DNA from: Burkholderiales bacterium
GTDB lineage: Bacteria > Pseudomonadota > Gammaproteobacteria > Burkholderiales > Ga0077523
Reading direction: 5' to 3'
NCBI GenBank assembly: GCA_019747905.1
Contig: JAIEQG010000013.1
Coordinates: forward strand, 50,482 to 114,481
Length of the DNA: 64,000 nucleotides
Below are positions 3,967 through 50,098 of the stretch, piece after piece. A program made the translations under genes and the position numbers. The first letter of the stretch is position 1; the number at the start of each line of letters is the position of its first letter. The notes under the pieces were generated by a model that saw nothing but the letters and a program-made list of their open reading frames with translations, was not told where the DNA came from and searched no databases.

Positions 3967-4685
3967 GCATGGCGCCCGCAGGATCGATTCACGAAATCGC
4001 CCCAGACACCTATCGCATCAGCATCGCGCTGCCCCCCGGCGCCTTCCCGGGCGGATTCTCGTTCAATCAGTACCTCGTCGTGGACGAGCAGCCGCTGCTG
4101 TTCCATACCGGTCCGAGAAAGATGTTCGGGCTGGTGCGCGAGCAGATCGAGAAGGTGCTGCCGGTCGCGGCGCTCCGCTACATCGCGTTCTCCCACGTGG
4201 AAGCCGACGAGTGCGGGAGCCTCCCCGATTTCCTGGCGGTCGCACCGCAAGCCCGCCCGGTCTGCAGCGCCATCGCGGCGATGGTCTCGATCGGCGACCT
4301 GGTCGACGTGGAGCCGATCGGTCTTGCCGATGGTCAGACGATCGAACTCGGCCGTCACCGGCTCACGTGGCAGTCGACGCCACATCTTCCGCATGGCTGG
4401 GAATGTGGGTACCTGTTCGACGCCACCACGCGCACGCTTTTTTGCGGGGACTTGCTCACCCAACCTGGCATGGGCGATCGCCCCCTGGTCAGCGACGACA
4501 TTCTCGGACCGAGCGAGGCGATGCGACACCAGATGGACTATTACTCACACGGTCGTGATTCTGCCGCGTTGATCGAGAAGCTGGCGCTGTTGCAGCCGGA
4601 ACGTCTCGCCTGCATGCACGGCAGCGCCTGGCAGGGTGATGGCGCCGGGTTGCTGCGGTCTCTCGGGCGCGCGCTCCTGCAGTGA
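3963..4685 (+). CDS. MBL-fold metallo-hydrolase (diiron/ODP-like HxExDxxG variant)
   Basis: The ATG at 3963 overlaps the TetR stop (ATGA). Sequence MSMAPAGSIHEIAPDTYRISIALP...FNQYLVVDEQPLLFHTG...IAFSHVEADECGSLPDF. The upstream part of track ORF 3537..4685 is an out-of-context extension. Confidence 0.85.
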   Translation: MSMAPAGSIHEIAPDTYRISIALPPGAFPGGFSFNQYLVVDEQPLLFHTGPRKMFGLVREQIEKVLPVAALRYIAFSHVEADECGSLPDFLAVAPQARPVCSAIAAMVSIGDLVDVEPIGLADGQTIELGRHRLTWQSTPHLPHGWECGYLFDATTRTLFCGDLLTQPGMGDRPLVSDDILGPSEAMRHQMDYYSHGRDSAALIEKLALLQPERLACMHGSAWQGDGAGLLRSLGRALLQ

Positions 4686-6652: not shown

Positions 6653-9600
6653 CTAGGCGTGCGTCGTCGCGGCGGCGAGTTCAGGACCTTCGTCCTGCCG
6701 CTTGTGGACCTTGCGCACCAGCACCGAGTAGATGGTGGGAATCACGAACAGCGTGAGCAGCGTTCCCAGCATCAGCCCGCCGACCACCACCCAGCCGATG
6801 GCCTGCCGCGACTCGGCACCGGCCCCGTGGGCCAGTGCCAACGGAACGGCACCCAGCACCATGGCGGCGGTCGTCATCAGGATCGGGCGCAACCGCAGCG
6901 TGGCGGCTTCCTTCACCGCCTCGACGCGATCCATGCCGCGCTCGCGCAACTGGTTGGCGAACTCGACGATGAGAATGCCGTGCTTGGTGATGAGGCCCAC
7001 CAGCATCACCAGGCCCACCTTGCTGTACACGTTGAGGGTGCCGCCGTTGCCAAGCTTGGTGTTGATGTACATCACCAGCAGCGCACCCGTCATGGCGAGC
7101 GGCACCGTGAACATGATGACCAGCGGACCGACGAAGCTCTCGAACTGCGCGGCGAGCACGAGGTAGATGACCAGCAGCGCCAAGCCGAAGGTGACGATGA
7201 GCTGCGCCCCCGACTCGCGGAACTCGCGCGAGATGTTGTCGAGGTCGGTGCGGGTCTCCGGTCCGAGTTCGGACTTCACCAGAGCGTCCATGTGATCGAG
7301 CACCTGGCCCAGCGTGTAACCGGGGGCCGGTTCACCGTTGATCACCGCTGCGCGCAGCTTGTTGAAGTGGTTGAGCTCCTTCGGACCGACCGACTCCGAG
7401 ATCGAGACGAGGTTCGACAACTGGTGCAGCGTGCCGTCGTTGCCGCGGACGTAGATGGACGTGAGGTCGCTCGGTTGCCGGCGCTTGTCGTCTTCCATCT
7501 GCACCACGACGTCGTACTGCTTGCCTTCGTGCTTGTAGCGAGTGACGTCGAAACCGCCCAGCAGCGTTTCCAGCGTGTGTCCGATGGTGCTCATCGACAC
7601 GCCGAGCGCCGAGGCCTTGTCGCGATCGATCTTCACCGAGAGCTGCGGCTTGTTGAGCTTGAGGTCCGTGTCGAGCGCGGTGATGCCCGGGTAATCGCGC
7701 AGCTTCGCCATCATCTTGTTGACCTTCACCTGCAGGTCTTCGTAGGTGTTGCCGTAGATGACGTACTCGACGCTCTTCGCGAACAGCGGCTGGCCGAGCG
7801 CGGGCAGCGCCTTGGTGAAGGACAGGGCGCCCGGCAGGCCGCCGAAGAGCTTCGGCCCCAGTTCCTTCGTGATCGCCTGCTGGCCGCGCTTGCGCTCGTG
7901 CCAGGGCTTCAGGACCGCGAAGGCCACGCCCAGGTTGACCGGGTTGGGCCGGTCCAGACCGGGGGCCACCACGGCAAACATCGTTTCGATCTCGGGTACG
8001 CCCTTGGTCATCTCCTCCACCGCGCGCATGTACCCATCGGTGTATTGCATGCTCGAGCCTTCCGGCGCGATCACGAAGGCGAGGAACATGCTCCGGTCTT
8101 CCTCGGGCGACAGTTCGTCCTTCAGCTGGCCGAGCAGCCAGACCATCGAGCCCAGCGTCGCGACCAGGACGATGGCGATGACCCAGCGGTGGCGCAGCGT
8201 CCAGCCGAGCATCGACCGGTAGACGTTCACCATGCCGGCGAAGAACGGCTCGGTCTTGTGATAGAGCCAACTGTGCTCGGCCCGCAGGAACTTCGAGCAC
8301 ATCATCGGCACCAGCGTCAGTGCGACGAAACCGGACACGATTACGGAGGTCGCCACGGTCAGCGCGAACTCCGTCATCAGCTTGCCGACGTTGCCTTCGG
8401 CGAAGGACAGCGGCGTGAACACGGCGGCGAGGGTGATGGTCATCGCGATGACCGCGAAGCCGATCTCCTTACTGCCGACCAGCGCCGCCTTGAAGGGCTT
8501 CATGCCCTCCTCGATGTGGCGGTGCACGTTCTCCAGCACGACGATGGCGTCGTCCACCACGAGACCGATCGAGAGCACCACGCCGAGCAGGGTCAGCGTG
8601 TTGATGGAGAACCCCAGCACCTTGAGGAACGTGAAGTGCCCGATGATGGACACGGGGATCGTCACGGCAGGGATGATCGTCGCGCGGAACTCGCGCAGGA
8701 AGAAGAAGATCACCAGCACCACGAGGGCCAGGGCGACGTAGATCGTTTCCATCACGGAATCGACCGAGGCCTGGATGAACTGCGAGGTGTCCACCGCAAC
8801 CCACATCTTCATGCCGGGCTGCAGCGAGGTTTCGAGGCGCGGCAGCAGTTCTTTCACTGCCTGGGCCACTTCCAGCGTGTTGGCCGTCGATTGCTTGACG
8901 ACACCCAGGCCAAGCGCCTCTTCGCCACGGACCCGCACGATCTTGCGGTTCTCGTACGGTCCCGGGGCTGCGCGGCCGACGTCGCGGAGGCGGATCGGAT
9001 ACCCGTTCACCTCCTTGATGATCATGTTGTTGAATTCTTCGGGCGACAGCAGATCGGTGCGCGCCTGGACGGTGAACTCGCGTTGCGTGCTCTCGATGCG
9101 ACCGCCGGGCGAATCGAGGTTCTGGCGCTTCAGCGCGTCCTCGACGTCCTGCGCGGTGAGGCCCTGGGCGGCGAGACGCTCGCGGTCGAGCCACACCCGC
9201 ATCGCATACTTGCGTTCCCCGCCGATGATGACCGAGGCCACCCCGGGAATCGCCTTGAGCGGGTCGGTGAGGTAGCGGTCGGCGAAGTCGGTCATCTCCA
9301 TCGGCGTGTGCTGGCCGCTGGTGAGTGCCACCCATACGATGGGCTGGGCGTCGGCTTCGATCTTCGACACCACCGGGTTGTCAGCGGCGGCCGGAATGTT
9401 CTTCCGCACGCGCGCGACCCGGTCGCGCACGTCGTTCGCGGCGCCGTCGATCTCGCGGCTGGTGACGAAGGTGACAGTGATCTGGCTCACCTCTTCACGG
9501 CTCTGCGACTTGATGGTCTTGATGCCCTCGATGCCCGACAGCGAATCTTCCAGCGGCTGGGTAATGGCACTTTCCATCACCTGCGCCGTCGCACCCTTGT

Positions 9601-13659: not shown

Positions 13660-13691
13660 TGCAGTCCAATGGTGGCCCCCCACTTCCCCGT

Positions 13692-13714
13692 CCCTTCTCC
13701 CCGGGGGAGAAGGG
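13692..13714. repeat. GC hairpin related to the C5/G5 repeat units
   Basis: CCCTTCTCCCC-g-GGGGAGAAGGG is a perfect 11-bp dyad between dps and the response-regulator gene. Confidence 0.35.
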
Positions 13715-13742
13715 GGGATTCCACGAATGAATGGGGTAACCA

Positions 13743-24121: not shown

Positions 24122-24252
24122 GGCCCCCATCCCAACCTTCCCCCGGCGAAGCCGGGGGAAGGGGTGTAAAGCTCTCTCCCCCGACGAAGTCGGGGGAAAG
24201 GGTGTAAAGCTCCCTCCCCCGACGGAGTCGGGGGAGGGCTGGGGTGGGGGCC
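24122..24252 (+). repeat. nested-hairpin intergenic repeat, family 1, expanded copy (three internal hairpins)
   Basis: Outer arms GGCCCCCATCCCAACC / GGCTGGGGTGGGGGCC enclose three hairpins. These are CCTTCCCCCGGC-gaa-GCCGGGGGAAGG, CTCTCCCCCGAC-gaa-GTCGGGGGAAAG and CCCTCCCCCGAC-gga-GTCGGGGGAGGG, separated by GGTGTAAAGCT. The copy lies between the convergent lon and uvrA-like ends. Confidence 0.8.
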
Positions 24253-24265
24253 AGACGCCGAATAC

Positions 24266-27200
24266 CTAGGCGCCGCTGCCACGCTCCGCCAGAAACTCCC
24301 CGAGCACCTTCGCCGTATGCGACCGCGTCGCCTTCGCGACGATCGTCTCAGGTGCTCCCTGCGCGACGATCTCGCCACCGGCATCCCCACCCTCGGGTCC
24401 GAGATCGATGATCCAGTCGGCCTCTGCCATCACATCGAGGTTGTGCTCGATCACCACCACGGAATTGCCGGCGTCCACCAGTCGATGCAGCACGCGGATC
24501 AGTTTCTCCACATCCGCCATGTGCAGCCCGACAGTCGGTTCGTCCAGCACGTAGAGCGTGTGCTGCTGCGCGCCGGCGCGACCCGGTCTGGCGCCGGCGT
24601 CGGACTGATCGGTGCGCACCTTGGACAGCTCCGTCACCAGCTTGATCCGCTGTGCTTCGCCGCCCGAGAGCGTCGGACTCTGCTGCCCGAGCGTGAGATA
24701 GCCCAGTCCCACGTCCTGCAGCAAGCGCAGCGCGTGATGGATCGAGTTGTGTGCCGAGAAGAACTCGACCGCGTCGTCCACGCTCATCGCCAGCACATCG
24801 CCGATGGACTTGCCCTTGAACTGCACCGAGAGTGTTTCGGGATTGAAACGTTTGCCGCCGCACACATCGCAGGTCACCTTCACGTCCGGCAGGAAGCTCA
24901 TCTCGATCTTCTGCAAACCCTGGCCTTCGCAGGCATCGCAGCGGCCGCTGCCGGTGTTGAAGGAAAACCGCGTGGCCTCGAAACCGCGCATGCGCGCTTC
25001 GGTGGTGCCGGCGAACAGTCGGCGGATCGAATCCCAGAAGCCGACGTAGGTCGCCGGGCAGGAGCGCGGTGTCTTGCCGATGGGCGTCTGGTCCACTTCG
25101 AGCACCCGACCCACCGCTTCCGCACCCTTGACGTCGCGACACCCGAGGAAGACTTCACCCGGCCCGCGGCGCTTGCGCCCTTCGGAGACGATGTGCACGA
25201 GATTCGCGTGCAGCACGTCGCGCGCGATCGTGGATTTGCCGGAGCCGGATACGCCTGTGATCACCGTCAGCCGACCGAGCGGCACGCGCGCGTTCACCTG
25301 CTTCAGGTTGTGCAGGTCCGCGCCCACGAGCTCGATCGAAGGCGCGGATGCGGCCACGGCACGCCGCGGCGCCAGCGGATGCCGCAATGGCTCGCGCAGG
25401 AAACGGCCGGTGAGCGAATCGGGCGAGGCCATCAGATCCTCTGCCGTGCCTTGCCCCACCACGTGACCGCCACGCGTGCCTGCGCCCGGACCCAGGTCGA
25501 GCACGTGGTCGGCGCGCCGGATGGTGTCTTCGTCATGCTCGACCACCACCAGCGTGTTGCCCTTCGCTTCCAGCCGGGCGAGTGTGTCCAGGAGAATGCG
25601 GTTGTCACGCGGGTGCAGGCCGATGGTGGGTTCGTCGAGGATGTAGCAAACACCTTGCAGGTTCGAACCCAGTTGCGAGGCGAGGCGGATGCGCTGGGCC
25701 TCGCCACCCGACAGCGTCGGAGCCGAACGATCCAGCGCGAGATAGCCGAGCCCCACGTCCTGCAGGAAGCCGAGCCGTGACTTGAGCTCCGCCAGGATGT
25801 CGCGGGCGATCTCGAGTTCGCGCCCTTCGAGCGCGAGCAGATGGAAGAAGTCGTCGATCTTGCCCACCGACAGTGCCGCGAGGTCGGCGATGGAGAGGTC
25901 GCGAAACAGCACGTTCAGTGCGATCGGATTGAGGCGCTTGCCCTCGCAGGTCGGGCACGGGTGCGCATCGCCTTCGAACCAGTCGTTCCACCAGATCTCT
26001 TCGCCGGTCTGTTCCTCGTCGAACCCCTGGATCGCGAGGCCGGTGCCGTAACACGTCTCGCACCAGCCGTGCTTCGAGTTGTAGGAGAAGAGGCGTGGGT
26101 CGAGTTCCGGATAGCTGGTACCGCAGGTCGGGCAGGCGCGCTTGGTGGAGAACACCTGGTCGGTCGCCTCGGCCTTGCCCTCCAGCAGACCATCGAGCGG
26201 CGCGATGACGTGCACCACGCCCTTGCCGTGTTCCAGCGCGGTCGCCAGCGCGGTGCGCAGCGCGGTCTCGGCTTCCGGCGTGATCACAAGATCCGCCACC
26301 GGCAGCTCCAGAGTGTGCTCCTTGAACCGGTCGAGGCGCGGCCATTTCGCCGTGCCGATGAACTCGCCGTCCACACGCAGGTGCGTGTAGCCCTTGCCGG
26401 ACGCCCACTTCGCGAGATCGGTGTAGTACCCCTTCCGCGCGACCACCAGAGGCGCCAGAAGACCGATGTGCTGGCCTCGATAGTCGCGCAGGATGCGCGC
26501 GACGATGCTGTCGACGCTTTGCGGTTCGATCGGTGTGCCGTCGTTCGGGCAATGCTGCGTGCCCAGCTTCATGAACAGCAGCCGCAGGAAGTGATACACC
26601 TCGGTGAGAGTGGCCACCGTGCTCTTGCGCCCGCCGCGGCTGGTGCGCTGCTCGATCGCGACCGTGGGCGGAATGCCGAAGATCGCGTCCACGTCGGGGC
26701 GTGAGGCCGGCTGCACGAACTGGCGCGCATAGGCGTTGAGTGACTCGAGGTAACGGCGCTGGCCTTCGTTGAACAGGATGTCGAAGGCGAGCGTGGACTT
26801 GCCGGAGCCGGACACGCCGGTGATCACGTTGAAGCCGTGGCGCGGAATGTCGACGTTGACGCTCTTCAAGTTGTGTTCGCGGGCGTTGCGCACGCTGATC
26901 GAAGTTCCTCCCCGGGCCGCGCGCGGTACCGGTCGGTAGCTCACCGCGGACTCGGCGACGCGCGGCGTGTTGCCCGACAGCGCCGTGGCGTAGTCCCGCA
27001 GGGCCTTGCCGGTATGCGATGTCGGATGGGCCATCACGTCGGTCGGGGTGCCTGCGCAGACGAGCGCACCGCCGGCATCGCCGCCTTCGGGTCCCAGGTC
27101 GATCAGCCAGTCCGACGCACCGATCACGTCGAGGTTGTGCTCGATCACGATCAGAGAATGACCGGCGGCGAGCAGCTTGCGGAAGGCCCGGAGCAGCTTC

Positions 27201-30031
27201 GCGGTGTCGTCGAAATGCAGTCCGGTCGTCGGCTCGTCGAACAGGAACAACGATTTCGACGCCGTGCCGAGGTTGGCTTCGGCGAGATGACCGGCCAGCT
27301 TGAGCCGCTGTGCTTCGCCGCCCGACAAGGTCGGCACCGGCTGACCCAGGCGCAGGTACTCGAGGCCCACGTCTGCGAGCGGCTGCAGGCGCGCTAGCGT
27401 CTCCTTCGAATCGGCAAAGAAATGCACGGCCTCCGACACCGTCAATTCGAGTACCTCCGCCATGTTCCTGCCGGCCACAGTGATCTCGAGCACTTCCGGG
27501 CGATAGCGCTTGCCGTCGCAGTCCGGGCAGCGCAGATACACGTCGGAGAGGAACTGCATCTCCACGTGCTCGAAGCCGTTGCCGCCGCAGGTCGGGCAGC
27601 GGCCGTCGCCGGAGTTGAAGCTGAAGGTGCCGGGGGTATAGGCGCGCTGCTTCGCAGCCGGCGTGTCCGCGAACAGCTTGCGGATCGCGTCGAAGGCCCC
27701 GACGTAGCTCGCGGGGTTGGACCGGGTGGTCTTGCCGATCGGTGTCTGGTCCACCATCACGACCTCGGCGACGTGCTGATGGCCGCGCAGCTCACGGAAC
27801 GCGCCTGGCGTTTCGGTCGGCTTGCCTTTCTGCTTGAGCAGCGCGGCGTAGAGCACGTCCTGGACGAGGGTCGACTTGCCCGAGCCGGAAACGCCGGTGA
27901 TGGTGACCAGCCGCTCCAGCGGAATCGTCACATCCACGTTCTTCAGGTTGTGCTCGGTCGCACCGAGCAACTCCAGTTTCGGTCCGCGCGCATCGGGCGC
28001 TCGCGGCGCGAGACCGCTGTCGGCACGCTTGCGCCCCGACAGATACGAGGCGGTGAGCGAATCCGGTGTGCGCATCATCTCCTCCGGCGTGCCGAAGAAG
28101 ACGATCTCGCCGCCGCGTTCGCCGGGTCCGGGGCCCATGTCGAGCAGCCGGTCGGCGGCGAACATGATCTGCGGATCGTGCTCCACCACCACCAGCGAGT
28201 TGCCGGCATCGCGCAGCTTCTGCATCACCGCGATCACGCGCAGCATGTCGCGCGGATGCAGGCCGATGGAAGGTTCGTCGAGCACGAAGAGGGTGTTGAC
28301 GAGCGACGTGCCGAGCGCGGTGGTGAGGTTGATGCGCTGCACTTCGCCGCCCGAGAGCGTGCGCGATTGGCGGTCGAGTGTGAGATAGCCGAGCCCCACT
28401 TCGTTGACGAAACCGAGGCGGCTTCGGATCTCCGCGAGCAGCAGGTCGGTGGCTTCGTCGAGAGCGCCTTCGAGGCGCAGGCTCTCGAAGAACGTGCGGG
28501 TGCGTTCCGTGGGCAACAGCATCAGGTCGTGGATCGACAGACCCGGCAGGTGCTCGAGGACCTCGCGCGACCAGTCAACGCCCCGAGGCAGAAAGCGCTG
28601 GTTCGACGGGAGCACGGCATCGGCATCTGCGCTCGTACCGACTCGCCACAGCAGGGATTCCGGCTTCAGGCGCGCGCCGCCGCACGACTCGCACGGGGTG
28701 TAGGCGCGGTACTTCGACAGCAGCACCCGGATGTGCATCTTGTACGCCTTGGTCTCGAGCCAGGCGAAGAAGCGCCGCACGCCGTACCACGTGCCCGGCC
28801 AGGACTTGCTCCAGCTCTTCCATTCCGGTTCGCCCTCCAGCACCCAATGGCGCTGGGCATCGGTGAGGTCGCGCCAGGGCACATCGAGCGGGACGTCGCG
28901 CTTTCTTGCGTACTTCACCAGATCGTCCTGGCATTCGCTGAAACTCGGCGTCTGCCAAGGTTTGATCGCGCCGCCGCCGAGCGTCTTCGCAGAGTCCGGC
29001 ACGATCAGCCCGAAATCGATGCCGATCACGCGGCCGAAACCGCGACAGGTCTCGCAGGCCCCGATGGGCGAATTGAACGAGAAGCGGCTCGGATTCGGCT
29101 CGCTGTAGTGGATGTCGCAGTCGGGGCAGTGCAGGTCGGTGCTGTAACGCCACACTGCGGACGCCACGGGCACTCCTTTCCCCACCGGAACGGTGGGGGA
29201 AGGTTGGGAGCGAGACGGGGAATTCGAGCCGCATGCGGCGAGCCCGTCGAGCGGCGCCGGCATGCAGGCCGGCGCGCACTCCGCAGGAGGGGGCATTCCA
29301 CCGCCCGCAGCATCGTCGCCCACCGGATACACATTCACCCGCCCTTGCCCCACCCGCAGCGCCGCTTCGAGCGCCTCCACGATCCGCGCCCGTTCCGCGT
29401 TGCCCGCCCGGAACCGATCCTGGATGACCTCGACCGCATCCTTCGATCGCGCGTGGATCCGCGAATACCCCTGCACCTCCAGCAACTTCAGGACTTCCTC
29501 TTCCTTGAAATTCTTCGGCACCGGGACCGGGAAGGTCACGATCAGCCGTGGATCGCCCGTCGTCCTGGCCCGTTCCGTAAGGTCGTCGAAGATGGTCTGC
29601 GGCGAGTCGCGGCGCACCGCGCGCCCGCAATGGCGGCAGTGCAGATGGGCTGCCCGCGCGAACAGCAGCTTCAGGTGGTCGTTCAGCTCCGTCATCGTGC
29701 CGACGGTGGAGCGCGAGGTGCGCACCGGGTTGGTCTGGTCGATGGCAATGGCGGGCGGTATGCCCTCGACCCGATCCACCTGCGGCTTGTCCATGCGGTC
29801 CAGGAACTGGCGCGCGTAGGGCGAGAACGTCTCCACGTAGCGCCGCTGGCCTTCGGCGTAAAGCGTGTCGAACACCAGGGAGGACTTGCCGGAGCCGGAC
29901 ACGCCGGTCACCACCACCAGTTCGTTGGTGGGGATCGAGAGGGTCAGGTTCTTGAGGTTGTTCTGGCGCGCGCCGTGAATGACGATTGCTTCGCCGACAC
30001 GGTCGGAAAGAGGGGAATCGGGGGTTTTCAT
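24266..30031 (-). CDS. uvrA: tandem-duplicated UvrA-family ABC ATPase (two UvrA modules in one 1921-aa polypeptide)
   Basis: Start at MKTPDSPL (ATG 30031). There are four Walker A sites: GVSGSGKSSLVFDTLYAEGQRRY, GVSGSGKSTLVQDVLY, GVSGSGKSTLAFDILFNEGQRRY and GVSGSGKSTIARDVLH. There are four LSGGEAQR signature motifs. Zn-module CxxC pairs occur in both halves. Confidence 0.9.
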   Translation of the reverse strand: MKTPDSPLSDRVGEAIVIHGARQNNLKNLTLSIPTNELVVVTGVSGSGKSSLVFDTLYAEGQRRYVETFSPYARQFLDRMDKPQVDRVEGIPPAIAIDQTNPVRTSRSTVGTMTELNDHLKLLFARAAHLHCRHCGRAVRRDSPQTIFDDLTERARTTGDPRLIVTFPVPVPKNFKEEEVLKLLEVQGYSRIHARSKDAVEVIQDRFRAGNAERARIVEALEAALRVGQGRVNVYPVGDDAAGGGMPPPAECAPACMPAPLDGLAACGSNSPSRSQPSPTVPVGKGVPVASAVWRYSTDLHCPDCDIHYSEPNPSRFSFNSPIGACETCRGFGRVIGIDFGLIVPDSAKTLGGGAIKPWQTPSFSECQDDLVKYARKRDVPLDVPWRDLTDAQRHWVLEGEPEWKSWSKSWPGTWYGVRRFFAWLETKAYKMHIRVLLSKYRAYTPCESCGGARLKPESLLWRVGTSADADAVLPSNQRFLPRGVDWSREVLEHLPGLSIHDLMLLPTERTRTFFESLRLEGALDEATDLLLAEIRSRLGFVNEVGLGYLTLDRQSRTLSGGEVQRINLTTALGTSLVNTLFVLDEPSIGLHPRDMLRVIAVMQKLRDAGNSLVVVEHDPQIMFAADRLLDMGPGPGERGGEIVFFGTPEEMMRTPDSLTASYLSGRKRADSGLAPRAPDARGPKLELLGATEHNLKNVDVTIPLERLVTITGVSGSGKSTLVQDVLYAALLKQKGKPTETPGAFRELRGHQHVAEVVMVDQTPIGKTTRSNPASYVGAFDAIRKLFADTPAAKQRAYTPGTFSFNSGDGRCPTCGGNGFEHVEMQFLSDVYLRCPDCDGKRYRPEVLEITVAGRNMAEVLELTVSEAVHFFADSKETLARLQPLADVGLEYLRLGQPVPTLSGGEAQRLKLAGHLAEANLGTASKSLFLFDEPTTGLHFDDTAKLLRAFRKLLAAGHSLIVIEHNLDVIGASDWLIDLGPEGGDAGGALVCAGTPTDVMAHPTSHTGKALRDYATALSGNTPRVAESAVSYRPVPRAARGGTSISVRNAREHNLKSVNVDIPRHGFNVITGVSGSGKSTLAFDILFNEGQRRYLESLNAYARQFVQPASRPDVDAIFGIPPTVAIEQRTSRGGRKSTVATLTEVYHFLRLLFMKLGTQHCPNDGTPIEPQSVDSIVARILRDYRGQHIGLLAPLVVARKGYYTDLAKWASGKGYTHLRVDGEFIGTAKWPRLDRFKEHTLELPVADLVITPEAETALRTALATALEHGKGVVHVIAPLDGLLEGKAEATDQVFSTKRACPTCGTSYPELDPRLFSYNSKHGWCETCYGTGLAIQGFDEEQTGEEIWWNDWFEGDAHPCPTCEGKRLNPIALNVLFRDLSIADLAALSVGKIDDFFHLLALEGRELEIARDILAELKSRLGFLQDVGLGYLALDRSAPTLSGGEAQRIRLASQLGSNLQGVCYILDEPTIGLHPRDNRILLDTLARLEAKGNTLVVVEHDEDTIRRADHVLDLGPGAGTRGGHVVGQGTAEDLMASPDSLTGRFLREPLRHPLAPRRAVAASAPSIELVGADLHNLKQVNARVPLGRLTVITGVSGSGKSTIARDVLHANLVHIVSEGRKRRGPGEVFLGCRDVKGAEAVGRVLEVDQTPIGKTPRSCPATYVGFWDSIRRLFAGTTEARMRGFEATRFSFNTGSGRCDACEGQGLQKIEMSFLPDVKVTCDVCGGKRFNPETLSVQFKGKSIGDVLAMSVDDAVEFFSAHNSIHHALRLLQDVGLGYLTLGQQSPTLSGGEAQRIKLVTELSKVRTDQSDAGARPGRAGAQQHTLYVLDEPTVGLHMADVEKLIRVLHRLVDAGNSVVVIEHNLDVMAEADWIIDLGPEGGDAGGEIVAQGAPETIVAKATRSHTAKVLGEFLAERGSGA
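29175..29210 (-). repeat. family-1 hairpin unit embedded in-frame inside the uvrA-like CDS
   Basis: The plus strand reads CCTTTCCCCACCG-gaa-CGGTGGGGGAAGG-TTGGGAG. On the coding strand this is CTCCCAACCTTCCCCC..., the same left end as the intergenic copies. It translates as SQPSPTVPVGKG. Confidence 0.6.
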
Positions 30032-30369
30032 GTCAGTGGGGTGTTCGTTATCGCGATGGGCCAGCGGCCGGCGCAGCCGGGTTGCACGGGCCCTCCCGTA
30101 CAAGGCCTTGAGATGGGTGTCGCAGGGCCGCCCCAAGACACTGATGCGCCCCCTCGGGGGGCAGCGATCGCAGTGAGCGTGGGGGCCGTTTTGTCAGACT
30201 TTGGAGGGGTCGCGAGGGTCGACCCGGAAGCCCTCGATTGTAGTCTTGCCGCAGTGCAAACAAACGATCGCGTGCCGCGCGGGGAGTCTTTCCCTTGACC
30301 TCCCGGGTCGACAGTCGCACCATGTTCAGCCAACAAAAACTTACAGCAGCATTGGGGAGGAAAGAGCGC

Positions 30370-47715: not shown

Positions 47716-47806
47716 GGCCCCATCCCAACCTTCCCCCAGCGCAGCTGGGGGAAGGGGCGGTACATCCCCTCCCCCACTGAAAGTGGGGGAGGGTCAGGGT
47801 GGGGGC
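47716..47806 (+). repeat. nested-hairpin intergenic repeat, family 1 (two internal hairpins)
   Basis: GGCCCCATCCCAACC, then CCTTCCCCCAGC-gca-GCTGGGGGAAGG, then CCCTCCCCCACT-gaa-AGTGGGGGAGGG, then GGTCAGGGTGGGGGC. It lies between convergent gene ends (47671 and 47819). Confidence 0.8.
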
Positions 47807-47818
47807 AATCCGACAGGC

Positions 47819-48772
47819 CTATGCGGAACTCCGTGCACGCCGTGGTGCCTGCGCCAATTTGCCCGGCTGCCGAGCCTCGTCCAGCAGCCACTGCTCCAAC
47901 GCCCGCACTGCACGTCTGTTGCGTGCGGCGGCATCGATCACCAGGTAATAGGCGCGGGGTGACGCGAGGCGGCTCGTGAACGGTGCGACCAGTCGGCGCT
48001 CGGCGAGGAGATGGTCGACCAGTGGGGAACGCCCCAGCGCCACGCCTTGGCCGGCGACCGCCGCGAGGATCACCTCGTCGTAGTTGGTGAAGCTCAGCGT
48101 GGTGGCCGGCTGCAGGTCCGTGAGGTGGATCGCTTTCAACCACGGGTCCCAGTCGGTCGGCATGCCTGCATCCGCCGGCAGCAGCATCTGCAGCAACGGG
48201 AAGTGCCGTAGGTCCTCCGGCGTGTGCAAGCCGTGCCTCGTGCGTTTCAACAGGGCCGGCGAGCACACCGGTTGCACCGTTTCCGCGAACAGCTGCGTGC
48301 CGTCGATCGATCCGACCGGCGCGTAGCGGATCGCCACGTCGATATCGTCGCCGCGCAGGTCGCGGCGGCGGAAGCTCGCGTCGATGCGCACGTCGATGCC
48401 GGGGTGGGCCTGCGTGAATGCAGCCAGCCGCGGAATCAGCCAGAGCGAGGCGAGCCCTGGCGTCGTCGTGAGGGCGAGCACCTGACGCTGATTCGGCTGC
48501 CGAATGCGGGCCACGGTCGTTCTGAGCTCCGCGAGCAGGCCGGTGCAGGTTTCGAACAGGCGCTGCCCTTCGTCGGTCAACGCGAGGGCGCGGTGACGGC
48601 GCCGGAACAGGGGCACGCCCAGGTCGTCTTCCAGAGCCTTGATGCGCCGGCTCATGGCGGACTGCGTCACGAAGCGCTCGACGGCCGCCTTGGTGAACGA
48701 CAGGTGTCGCGCGGCCGCCTCGAACTCCACGAGCAGTTCCAGCGGGGGCAGGCGGGTGGCGGCCTTTCGCAT
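47819..48772 (-). CDS. LysR family transcriptional regulator (GcvA-like)
   Basis: LPPLELLVEFEAAARHLSFTKAAVERFVTQSAMSRRIKALEDDLGVPLFRRRHRALALTDEG. Confidence 0.9.
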   Translation of the reverse strand: MRKAATRLPPLELLVEFEAAARHLSFTKAAVERFVTQSAMSRRIKALEDDLGVPLFRRRHRALALTDEGQRLFETCTGLLAELRTTVARIRQPNQRQVLALTTTPGLASLWLIPRLAAFTQAHPGIDVRIDASFRRRDLRGDDIDVAIRYAPVGSIDGTQLFAETVQPVCSPALLKRTRHGLHTPEDLRHFPLLQMLLPADAGMPTDWDPWLKAIHLTDLQPATTLSFTNYDEVILAAVAGQGVALGRSPLVDHLLAERRLVAPFTSRLASPRAYYLVIDAAARNRRAVRALEQWLLDEARQPGKLAQAPRRARSSA

Positions 48773-48902
48773 GCGGTTACGGAATGGCAGGCATTCGGAG
48801 AATTCGTTTGAGACGGTATTTCTGTAGGGAGAGTATTCGATCTCCGATCGATCAAGGTCAAGACCTTCTCATGCTGCAAAAGCATGCAAGCCGGAGATTC
48901 GC

Positions 48903-49469
48903 ATGAACTGGTTCCACTCGCTCCCCGTTCGCACCCGCGGTGTCCGCGGCTCCCCGTCCAGCCTGGTCGACAGCGTCCTGCTTGCGGATGGACGAAGCGT
49001 GACCGTGCGGCCGGTGTTGCCGACGGACCTGGAGGCCGAGCGCCGCTTCGTCGTCGACTTGTCGCCGCAGTCGCGCTGGCAGCGCTTCCATCTGGGCATT
49101 GCGTCCCTGTCCGACGAGATGCTCCAGGCCTTCACTTGCATCGACTACCGCACCCACGTGGCGCTGATCGCCGCGCGCGATGACGATGCCGGGCCCGTCA
49201 TGGTCGCGGACGCCCGCTACGCAGTGCTCGCCGACACGGGCCATGCGGAGTTCGCCATTGCAGTGGCGGACGACTGGCAAGGGATCGGACTCGGGCGGGA
49301 GATGCTGGTCCGGCTCGGCATGCATGCGCGGCGCAGCGGACTCAGGAGGCTGTGCGGGGACATCGTGCGCGGCAATGCCGCGATGATCGGGCTCGCGCGC
49401 AACCTTGGCGGCCGCGTGTACTCGCATCCGGACGACATGCTGCTGATGCGCGTCAGTTTCGATTTCTAG
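48903..49469 (+). CDS. GNAT family N-acetyltransferase
   Basis: AEFAIAVADDWQGIGLGREMLVRLGMHARRSGLRRLCGDIVRGNAAMIGLARNLG is acetyl-CoA-binding motif A-like. Confidence 0.8.
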   Translation: MNWFHSLPVRTRGVRGSPSSLVDSVLLADGRSVTVRPVLPTDLEAERRFVVDLSPQSRWQRFHLGIASLSDEMLQAFTCIDYRTHVALIAARDDDAGPVMVADARYAVLADTGHAEFAIAVADDWQGIGLGREMLVRLGMHARRSGLRRLCGDIVRGNAAMIGLARNLGGRVYSHPDDMLLMRVSFDF

Positions 49470-49505
49470 ACACAATGCTCCCGTTGTTCCGGGAGGGATC
49501 GCACC

Positions 49506-49988
49506 ATGGTTGCACCGATGAGGAACCGCGCGGTGGTTGCATTCGAAGTCCCATTGCGCGCCAAGGCGTCGAACTATCCGGCGGAACTCGCCGCGTGCCT
49601 CGAGGGTCGTGAGAAGCGCCCGCTCGGCGACCTGTTCGGGTTGAAGAACTTCGGCGTCAACCTGACGCGCCTCGCCCCGGGCGCGCGCTCATCGTTACGG
49701 CATGCGCACAGCCTGCAGGACGAATTCGTCTACGTACTTGCCGGACGTCCGGTGCTGATCATGAACGATGGCGAGACGCCGCTGGCGCCGGGCATGTGCG
49801 CCGGATTTCCGGCCGGGACCGGCGATGCCCATCATCTGATCAATCGCAGCGACGAGGAGGTCTGGTATCTCGAAGTCGGTGACCGCACCGTGGGCGATGC
49901 GGCCAGCTATCCGGACGACGATCTGCAGGCGGTGAAGCTGAGCGACGGCGGCTGGGAGTTCCGGCACAAGGATGGGACGGCGTACTGA
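49506..49988 (+). CDS. cupin domain protein
   Basis: LRHAHSLQDEFVYVLAGRPVLIMNDGETPLAPGMCAGFPAGTGDAHHLIN. Confidence 0.8.
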   Translation: MVAPMRNRAVVAFEVPLRAKASNYPAELAACLEGREKRPLGDLFGLKNFGVNLTRLAPGARSSLRHAHSLQDEFVYVLAGRPVLIMNDGETPLAPGMCAGFPAGTGDAHHLINRSDEEVWYLEVGDRTVGDAASYPDDDLQAVKLSDGGWEFRHKDGTAY

Positions 49989-50006
49989 CGAGCGCGCCGG
50001 TCGCTT

Positions 50007-50098
50007 GCCCCCATCCCAACCTTCCCCCAGCGCAGCTGGGGGAAGGGGTGTACATCCCCTCCCCCACCATCAGTGGGGGAGGGTTAGGGTGGGGGGCC
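50007..50098 (+). repeat. nested-hairpin intergenic repeat, family 1 (two internal hairpins)
   Basis: Near-identical to 47716-47806. GCCCCCATCCCAACC, then CCTTCCCCCAGC-gca-GCTGGGGGAAGG, then CCCTCCCCCAC-catca-GTGGGGGAGGG, then GGTTAGGGTGGGGGGCC. It lies between convergent gene ends (49988 and 50120). Confidence 0.8.

Follow-up and report, generated by a model that had tools for sequence, protein, structure and literature searches.

Inverted pairs of probable BoxC-type triplex modules in the genome of a Burkholderiales bacterium

Composite elements between convergent genes

A 64,000-nucleotide (nt) stretch of the genome of a Burkholderiales bacterium (GenBank assembly GCA_019747905.1, contig JAIEQG010000013.1, positions 50,482 to 114,481 of the forward strand; hereafter the window) contains three composite repeat elements, at 47717-47805, 50008-50095 and 24124-24250. 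Each lies 12-55 nt past the stop codons of both genes of a convergent pair, the pairs being Lon/UvrA-like, ApbA-type reductase/LysR and cupin/formamidase. Each ~90-nt element is likely to be an inverted pair of ~38-nt intrastrand-triplex modules of the BoxC/PIT/TMECO type with a short palindromic linker between them. An earlier reading of the same DNA that used no database searches (the sequence-only reading) had placed the three elements to within 1-3 nt, had named the convergent genes on either side and had proposed a dispersed, REP-like, non-coding repeat, all of which is supported here. It had also described an outer stem enclosing two hairpins; instead, each 'outer arm' belongs to a single hairpin module, as its third segment. 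The features are listed below, with scores in bits from R1, a covariance model built from 25 modules of other genomes only.

Element 1, left module: 47717..47755, minus strand; minus-strand sequence CCTTCCCCC-AGCTGCGCT-GGGGGAAGG-TTG-GGATGGGGC; 0 duplex mismatches, 1 triad mismatch; R1 34.6 bits, full length
Element 1, linker: 47756..47766, no strand; 11 nt, GGCGGTACATC, centre of the quasi-palindrome, from the sequence and the alignment of compact composites
Element 1, right module: 47767..47805, plus strand; CCCTCCCCC-ACTGAAAGT-GGGGGAGGG-TCA-GGGTGGGGG; perfect duplex, 9/9 triads; R1 43 bits
Element 2, left module: 50008..50046, minus strand; perfect duplex and triads; R1 43.8 bits
Element 2, right module: 50057..50095, plus strand; GGGGGAGGG-TTA-GGGTGGGGG; one apical-stem mismatch, from triplex scan and fold; R1 46 bits
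Element 3, left module: 24124..24162, minus strand; triplex-motif scan; R1 44 bits
Element 3, tandem duplication of hairpin and linker: 24139..24235, plus strand; 38 nt, 2.6 copies; Tandem Repeats Finder, 91% matches
Element 3, right module: 24212..24250, plus strand; GGGGGAGGG-CTG-GGGTGGGGG; triplex-motif scan; R1 45.4 bits
Solo module, a different sequence variant: 13678..13715, minus strand; CCCTTCTCC-CCCGG-GGAGAAGGG-ACG-GGGAAGTGG; perfect duplex and triads; R1 19.6 bits, E = 0.01
Degenerate module with truncated third segment: 29175..29209, plus strand; R1 13.8 bits, E = 0.22

R1 finds all six modules of the composites at 35-46 bits, compared with 15-17 bits for the hairpin alone. The triplex-motif scan detected seven motifs in the window (these six and the solo module, here delimited as 13680-13714) and none in 50 Markov-2 simulations, while the C5...G5 hairpin pattern gave eight matches against 0.23 expected. 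The elements fold with z-scores of -5.1 to -9.9 relative to shuffled sequences, on both strands and as RNA or DNA. The greater length of the 24124-24250 copy is caused by its 38-nt tandem duplication, which creates an additional, central hairpin (24177-24198) lacking a third segment. A 12-bp stem with a 3-nt loop, the hairpin design first proposed, fits six of the seven hairpins; the exception is hairpin 2 of the 50008 copy, with 11 bp and CATCA as its loop. Six of the seven window hairpins have a G-N-A loop, which is not kept in relatives, whose loops are TTA, AAA, AAT, TCT or TAT. Identical cupin genes occur on short-read contigs that terminate within the element, which is consistent with a multi-copy repeat in this genome. 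Judged by best protein matches, the source is an uncultured, Burkholderiales-like betaproteobacterium.

Convergent placement and a common orientation, which the sequence-only reading took to be general, apply only to the three composites. However, the solo module at 13678-13715 lies between co-directional genes, a ferritin-like and a response-regulator/oxidoreductase gene, both on the plus strand (Pfam), the degenerate copy at 29175-29209 is within a coding sequence, and at an orthologous site in relatives the composite is inverted.

A three-segment module with a mirror rule

Each module consists, in order, of a C-rich arm of 9 nt, a variable apex that is in part self-pairing, a complementary G-rich arm, 2-4 nt and a second G-rich 9-mer. 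This last segment is the mirror image of the G-rich arm with A or T opposite each A, an arrangement that matches the purine-motif triad rule. In the window, right modules are laid out as CCCTCCCCC-apex-GGGGGAGGG-TTA-GGGTGGGGG and left modules, on the minus strand, as CCTTCCCCC-apex-GGGGGAAGG-TTG-GGATGGGGG; both types follow the rule. None of the six composite modules has a duplex mismatch, and the triads number 9/9 in five and 8/9 in one.

Loci in other genomes were found with an exact 19-mer of the left arm, CCCATCCCAACCTTCCCCC, which is present in at least 118 genome stretches. Across ~1 Mb of loci, the mirror rule is kept in 18 distinct G-arms, of which ~9 are independent; arms and their mirrors include GGGGGAAGG and GGATGGGGG, GGGGGAGGG and GGGTGGGGG, GGGAGAGGG and GGGTGAGGG, GGGAAAGGG and GGGATAGGG, and GGAGAAGGG and GGGATGAGG. 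The opposite side of the same hairpins, which serves as a built-in control, mostly allows 2-6 of 9 triads. When no triad filter is applied, A or T is still enriched opposite A (Fisher's test, odds ratio 1.9, p = 1e-7), also with the ascertained arm left out (odds ratio 1.8, p = 5e-6).

Sixty-one of 192 modules are solo, with no complement of the third segment within 250 nt, although many of these were found via the 19-mer, which itself includes the third segment. Because the third segment is kept in these partnerless modules, pairing between outer arms cannot be the constraint. The right-hand partner is often missing, and thus the left 'outer arm' is part of the left hairpin and not half of an enclosing stem. 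The asymmetric arms of this variant allow a mirror copy, which is observed, to be distinguished from a direct copy, which would be expected for an alternative hairpin. They therefore offer a sharper test of the fold, since a mirror copy is what a triplex requires and the symmetric E. coli arm GGGAGAGGG cannot discriminate between the two.

The paired stem substitutions noticed between the window copies are genuine, and they are located in the apical extension of the stem. Twelve of 14 nine-nt spacers form three extra pairs (0.33 pairs in the shuffled control), with five different pair sets among the twelve, and shorter apices in other genomes also tend to be closed by a pair. Constraint on structure, beyond sequence alone, is supported. 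A recurrent sub-variant with the 3' arm GGAGGAAGG has a T.G pair at a fixed stem position, on the G-rich strand, in several phyla (loci L033, L034, L035, L051, L054, L090, L103 and L123). More generally, T.G accounts for 44 of 56 single stem mismatches, a count biased by the selection filter. At three loci (L036 ~3043, L038 ~2695 and L085 ~6852) 80-100 nt separate the left arm from the matching G-arm, or no such arm follows; these cases resemble foreign DNA inserted into the hairpin apex, and the L085 insert holds an E. coli-type module.

The G-tracts could also form a G-quadruplex/hairpin switch, as in the HPGQ motif of Kaplan et al., rather than a triplex. The pattern of the right modules, G5-A-G3-N3-G3-T-G5, is that of a canonical four-tract motif, and E. 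coli relatives of the module switch in circular dichroism between a quadruplex in K+ and another fold in Mg2+ (PMC5100583). However, some variants that obey the mirror rule lack four usable G-tracts, for example GGGGGAGAG-TCA-GAGTGGGGG in L113. Positions opposite A are occupied near-evenly by A (227) and T (248) among mirror-rule modules; a triplex needs A or T there and quadruplex loops do not. A quadruplex also leaves the conserved C-rich arm unexplained. Such a switch in place of the triplex therefore seems rather improbable. The best-supported reading of what is conserved in this non-coding repeat is a G-rich strand able to fold back twice.

Relationship to BoxC, PIT and TMECO

Repeats of the BoxC/triplex-motif type have been known since the 1990s, but to our knowledge neither a function nor a means of spread has been established for them. 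The BoxC/PIT/TMECO motif of E. coli, also present in other Proteobacteria (Hoyne & Maher 2000; Holder et al. 2015), is CCCTCNCCC N3-6 GGGNGAGGG N3 GGGNGAGGG (PMC4666352); Kaplan et al. (2016) named the same motif HPGQ (PMC5100583). TMECO has 3610 occurrences in 262 proteobacterial genomes, is intergenic without strand bias, and frequently forms inverted pairs in which one member has a TTA loop and the other a CCG loop; five such E. coli pairs are given in Table 1 of that study, in both pairing orders (PMC4666352). E. coli oligonucleotides of this type form triplexes in vitro, the motif blocks polymerases in vitro, and TMECO loci show unusual variability between strains (PMC4666352).

R1 also recognises E. 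coli TMECO 1, 2, 17 and 18, at 38-50 bits, although its training set included GGGAGAGGG-type modules. Its alignment was restricted to equal-length modules with sequences chosen for perfect stems, so that its pair count is circular. At L050, the partner of a module of the present variant agrees with the strict TMECO consensus.

The window modules share with TMECO the succession of C-arm, loop, G-arm, ~3-nt loop and mirror G-segment, 9-nt arms and TTA-type second loops. Like TMECO, they also have many copies in intergenic sites of both strands, are often arranged as inverted pairs that combine two subtypes, and show local hypervariability among relatives. They differ in their G5/C5-based, asymmetric arms (GGGGGAGGG and GGGGGAAGG, as opposed to GGGNGAGGG), in an apex lengthened to a 12-bp stem, in a pair linker of 10-11 nt (16-59 nt in E. 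coli), and in the 38-nt internal duplication of one copy. Whereas TMECO is reported to be always intergenic, this variant also occurs in frame within genes. In E. coli, a 55-nt spacer separates the modules of pair 17+18, which is located between lldD and trmL. The family is known, and the G5/C5 sequence and architecture variant is new. A literature search with sequence fragments of this variant returned nothing specific, the match to a Pseudomonas alkB2 oligonucleotide being coincidental.

Distribution and genomic context

Among the matches listed, carriers of the 19-mer include Variovorax, Luteimonas, Pseudoxanthomonas, Noviherbaspirillum, Gallionellaceae, Bradyrhizobium, Azospirillum, many Dehalococcoidia, Bacteroidia, Poribacteria, Acetothermia and Elusimicrobia. 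The set includes many metagenome-assembled genomes, and taxonomy is as labelled in the records. A recognisable 3' half, that is, a hairpin after the 19-mer, is present in 125 of 131 copies among those matches. The conserved block has sharp ends and reads CCCCCATCCCAACCTTCCCCC-loop-GGGGGAAGG-(A/G)G, preceded by R and followed by Y. Among 102 neighbouring pairs of modules, 89 are in inverted orientation. The compact composite, with third segments outermost and a linker of 7-12 nt, occurs in Burkholderiales, Gallionellaceae, Azospirillum, Dehalococcoidia and three IMG/VR contigs.

Nine contigs labelled viral or proviral in IMG/VR (L125-L133), which may be true phage genomes or host flanks, carry the exact 19-mer, and L128, L132 and L133 have the full compact composite. 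Tandem arrays of modules occur at L018 566-944, L093 7025-7293 and L094 4082-4336, with a period of ~141 nt in Variovorax boronicumulans; in a betaproteobacterial metagenome-assembled genome it is ~86 nt. Perfect heptamer tandem repeats (TCCAGAC, CCCCGCT, AGTCCCG and CCCGATT, in 3-4 copies) follow 4 of 131 modules (L077, L083, L087 and L122), up to 160 nt downstream of the left module, compared with 14 of 5120 random windows.

The sharp inverted ends (a CCCCC start and a GGGGG end), the length of 75-130 nt and the dispersed copies recall a miniature inverted-repeat transposable element (MITE), that is, a deletion derivative of an insertion sequence whose C5.../...G5 arms would be terminal inverted repeats for the corresponding transposase. 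Yet 20 compact composites show no consistent target-site duplication, their flanks tending instead to prolong the palindrome, no parent element or transposase was present in any locus examined, and half elements (single modules) are common and intact. An origin as a MITE is therefore hardly credible.

Across genomes, rough gene calls place 33 modules between convergent genes, 44 between tandem genes, 12 between divergent genes and 7 within coding sequences. Convergent placement is thus not a rule. The excess of convergent over divergent sites, together with the multi-copy and mostly intergenic distribution and presence or absence that differs among relatives, would suit REPIN-type REP doublets mobilised in trans by a RAYT (an IS200/IS605-like Y1 transposase) encoded elsewhere in the genome, as the sequence-only reading had suggested. 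The form is also similar: REP, BIME and REPIN repeats are, like the modules, short and structured (imperfect palindromes with a conserved flank), found singly, as inverted doublets or in arrays, and mostly extragenic with enrichment at gene 3' ends. The modules are unlike them in having an extra mirror segment, which RAYT recognition does not explain, and in lacking a GTAG or CGTC head at the hairpin, where the flank is R followed by CCCCCATCCCAA. A tblastn search with E. coli RayT yielded nothing below E = 1 in the window, where the sequence-only reading had likewise seen no RAYT gene, or in ~1 Mb of module-bearing loci. All-against-all clustering of open reading frames from 118 loci showed no gene family recurring beside the modules other than large housekeeping families (ABC ATPases, GGDEF, SDR, LysR and similar). 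Finally, REP families are normally lineage-specific and the module is found in many phyla. Mobilisation by a RAYT is therefore very unlikely.

A function at the RNA level, as a bidirectional terminator or as a 3'-end stabiliser for two convergent transcripts, is suggested by the position of the three composites just past both stop codons, by their very stable RNA folds on both strands (-65 to -108 kcal/mol), and by the prevalence of T.G among one-mismatch stems, with the filter bias already noted. However, the U-tract that defines a terminator does not follow any of the hairpins on either strand, and a terminator scan reported none at the elements. Modules also occur upstream of genes, between co-directional genes and within coding sequences, and a hairpin role in RNA does not explain the third segment, which contributes ~28 bits in the model. 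Related E. coli elements have neither promoter nor terminator activity, according to work of the Maher laboratory, and purine-motif triplexes do not form in RNA (both cited or stated in PMC4666352). Selection for an RNA function is accordingly unlikely; the stable hairpins are probably no more than an incidental barrier at the 3' end of each of the two convergent mRNAs.

Supply or sequestration of a Shine-Dalgarno sequence by the GGGGGAAGGAG arm was considered and rejected: a start codon opening a long reading frame lies within 3-14 nt of 6 of 116 left modules, compared with 16% of random positions. Rfam gave no window match at the gathering score, and its sub-threshold matches (sucA motif, miRNA precursors) reflect generic hairpin resemblance at chance level. 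A metagenome scan with the acetyltransferase encoded between two of the elements found only relatives of 26-37% identity, and hence no orthologous loci were obtained. In the plasmid collection the formamidase gene had the sole match, at ~73% identity, and an exact look-up of the Lon protein returned no record.

Turnover at orthologous intergenic sites

Relatives with conserved gene order were obtained through homologues of the cupin. In one of them (L142, cupin 89% identical) 22 nt separate the stop codons of ApbA and LysR, so that the site is empty, whereas in L144 an element is present at this site. At the cupin/formamidase site, the composite of L143 is that of the window but for an altered loop and a repaired apical pair, while L142 and L145/L146 have a composite in which the two module types are swapped, so that the element was either inverted in place or inserted the opposite way. 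Gain or loss and flipping thus occur between close relatives.

Copies in frame within proteins

The UvrA-like gene next to element 3 (24266-30031, minus strand) encodes a double UvrA, a fusion protein of ~1921 residues that contains four ABC modules; the fusion accounts for the internal direct repeats D1-D4, D6, D8, D13 and D16. Its start is the ATG at 30031 (MKTPDS..), inside the longest open reading frame, which begins at 30136; the region upstream of the GTG at 29167 encodes an N-terminal sequence like that of UvrA and has coding-like GC3, which establishes this start. The degenerate module at 29175-29209 is therefore in frame inside the gene, and its alternative interpretation as a 5'-UTR element (the 29179 copy) was ruled out. 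It lies in a variable linker that separates the UvrA interaction domain from the WRYSTDL motif (window 29020-29330) and encodes ..SRSQPSPTVPVGKG...

This linker has 10-14 residues in most UvrA homologues and is ~45 residues longer in the window gene. In a relative 90% identical at the protein level (L141, 3560-3760) it holds a different, complete module and CCTCACC repeats, with near-identical DNA on the one flank that the alignment covers, and in other lineages it contains other module types. The UvrA linker is thus hypervariable between 90%-identical relatives.

Two other proteins contain modules in frame. A CopA-type copper P-type ATPase (L014, ~4550-4680, minus strand) has a module pair of ~46 residues between LQGG and VAMVGDG. 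A leucyl-tRNA synthetase (LeuRS) at L123 (~6690-6740), related most closely to homologues from Calditrichota and candidate division KSB1, has a module (TPIPTFPHKVEEGE) in one surface loop. Several of its homologues (P0002-P0020) have related proline/glycine-rich inserts (PPNPPVNGG, PSRPSPQAGKE and others) and some have none, so that this loop looks like a hotspot. Rickettsia palindromic elements are another type of palindromic repeat that can be in frame in permissive loops of housekeeping proteins. They are longer than the modules (~100-150 nt), AT-rich and confined to Rickettsia, and we know of no sequence relationship between them and the triplex modules.

Possible mechanism and wider implications

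Several observations weigh against the interpretation of the elements as paired triplex modules. Holder et al. did not see a triplex in duplex DNA, nor protection in dimethyl sulfate footprints made in vivo (PMC4666352), and hence the fold may never form in cells. The strict TMECO consensus has no match in the window, where the third segment is GGGTGGGGG or GGATGGGGG and the spacer between the arms is 9 nt instead of the published 3-6 nt; the window copies are therefore a variant and not canonical members. A quadruplex suits the G-tract layout about equally well for most variants. Many of the modules analysed come via one exact 19-mer, which biases the counts for that variant, and the gene calls in the loci are crude (a GC3-filtered caller that miscalls neighbours of the 24124 and 50008 elements). 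Finally, the interpretation leaves dispersal unexplained and does not account for the origin of copies at new sites.

Even so, triplex modules remain the likely identity of the elements, and the sequence-only reading was right in its structural intuition but not in its architecture or proposed functions. Whether the fold forms in vivo, how the module spreads and whether there is any benefit can at most be inferred from these comparisons. When the G-rich strand becomes single-stranded during replication, repair or transcription, it may fold into the hairpin, and the third segment could then occupy the major groove, forming G*G:C, A*A:T and T*A:T triads; another possible outcome is a quadruplex built from the G-tracts. 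The whole pair could extrude as a long hairpin or cruciform. Such folds would stall polymerases and thereby favour slippage, template switching and recombination between the inverted arms. Stalling and recombination of this kind would explain how copies are gained, lost, duplicated and flipped while the three-segment rule is kept.

In practical terms, the repeats interrupt short-read assemblies and add proline/glycine-rich inserts to annotated proteins. The relatives provide direct examples of gain or loss, in-place inversion, internal duplication and in-frame residence, and if a propagation mechanism exists, these hypervariable sites are the place to look for it. A more speculative proposal, which we regard as somewhat unlikely, is that the module is a pan-bacterial selfish DNA, defined by its structure, with a propagation route of its own that includes in-frame insertion into permissive loops. 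If so, the folded single strand might be recognised by an enzyme acting in trans, or a template-switch process of replication or repair might operate; either would let the module insert, invert and duplicate at many sites. Selfish DNA of this kind would enter essential proteins such as UvrA-like proteins, LeuRS and CopA-type ATPases, in bacteria ranging from Proteobacteria to Chloroflexota and Calditrichota-like lineages.

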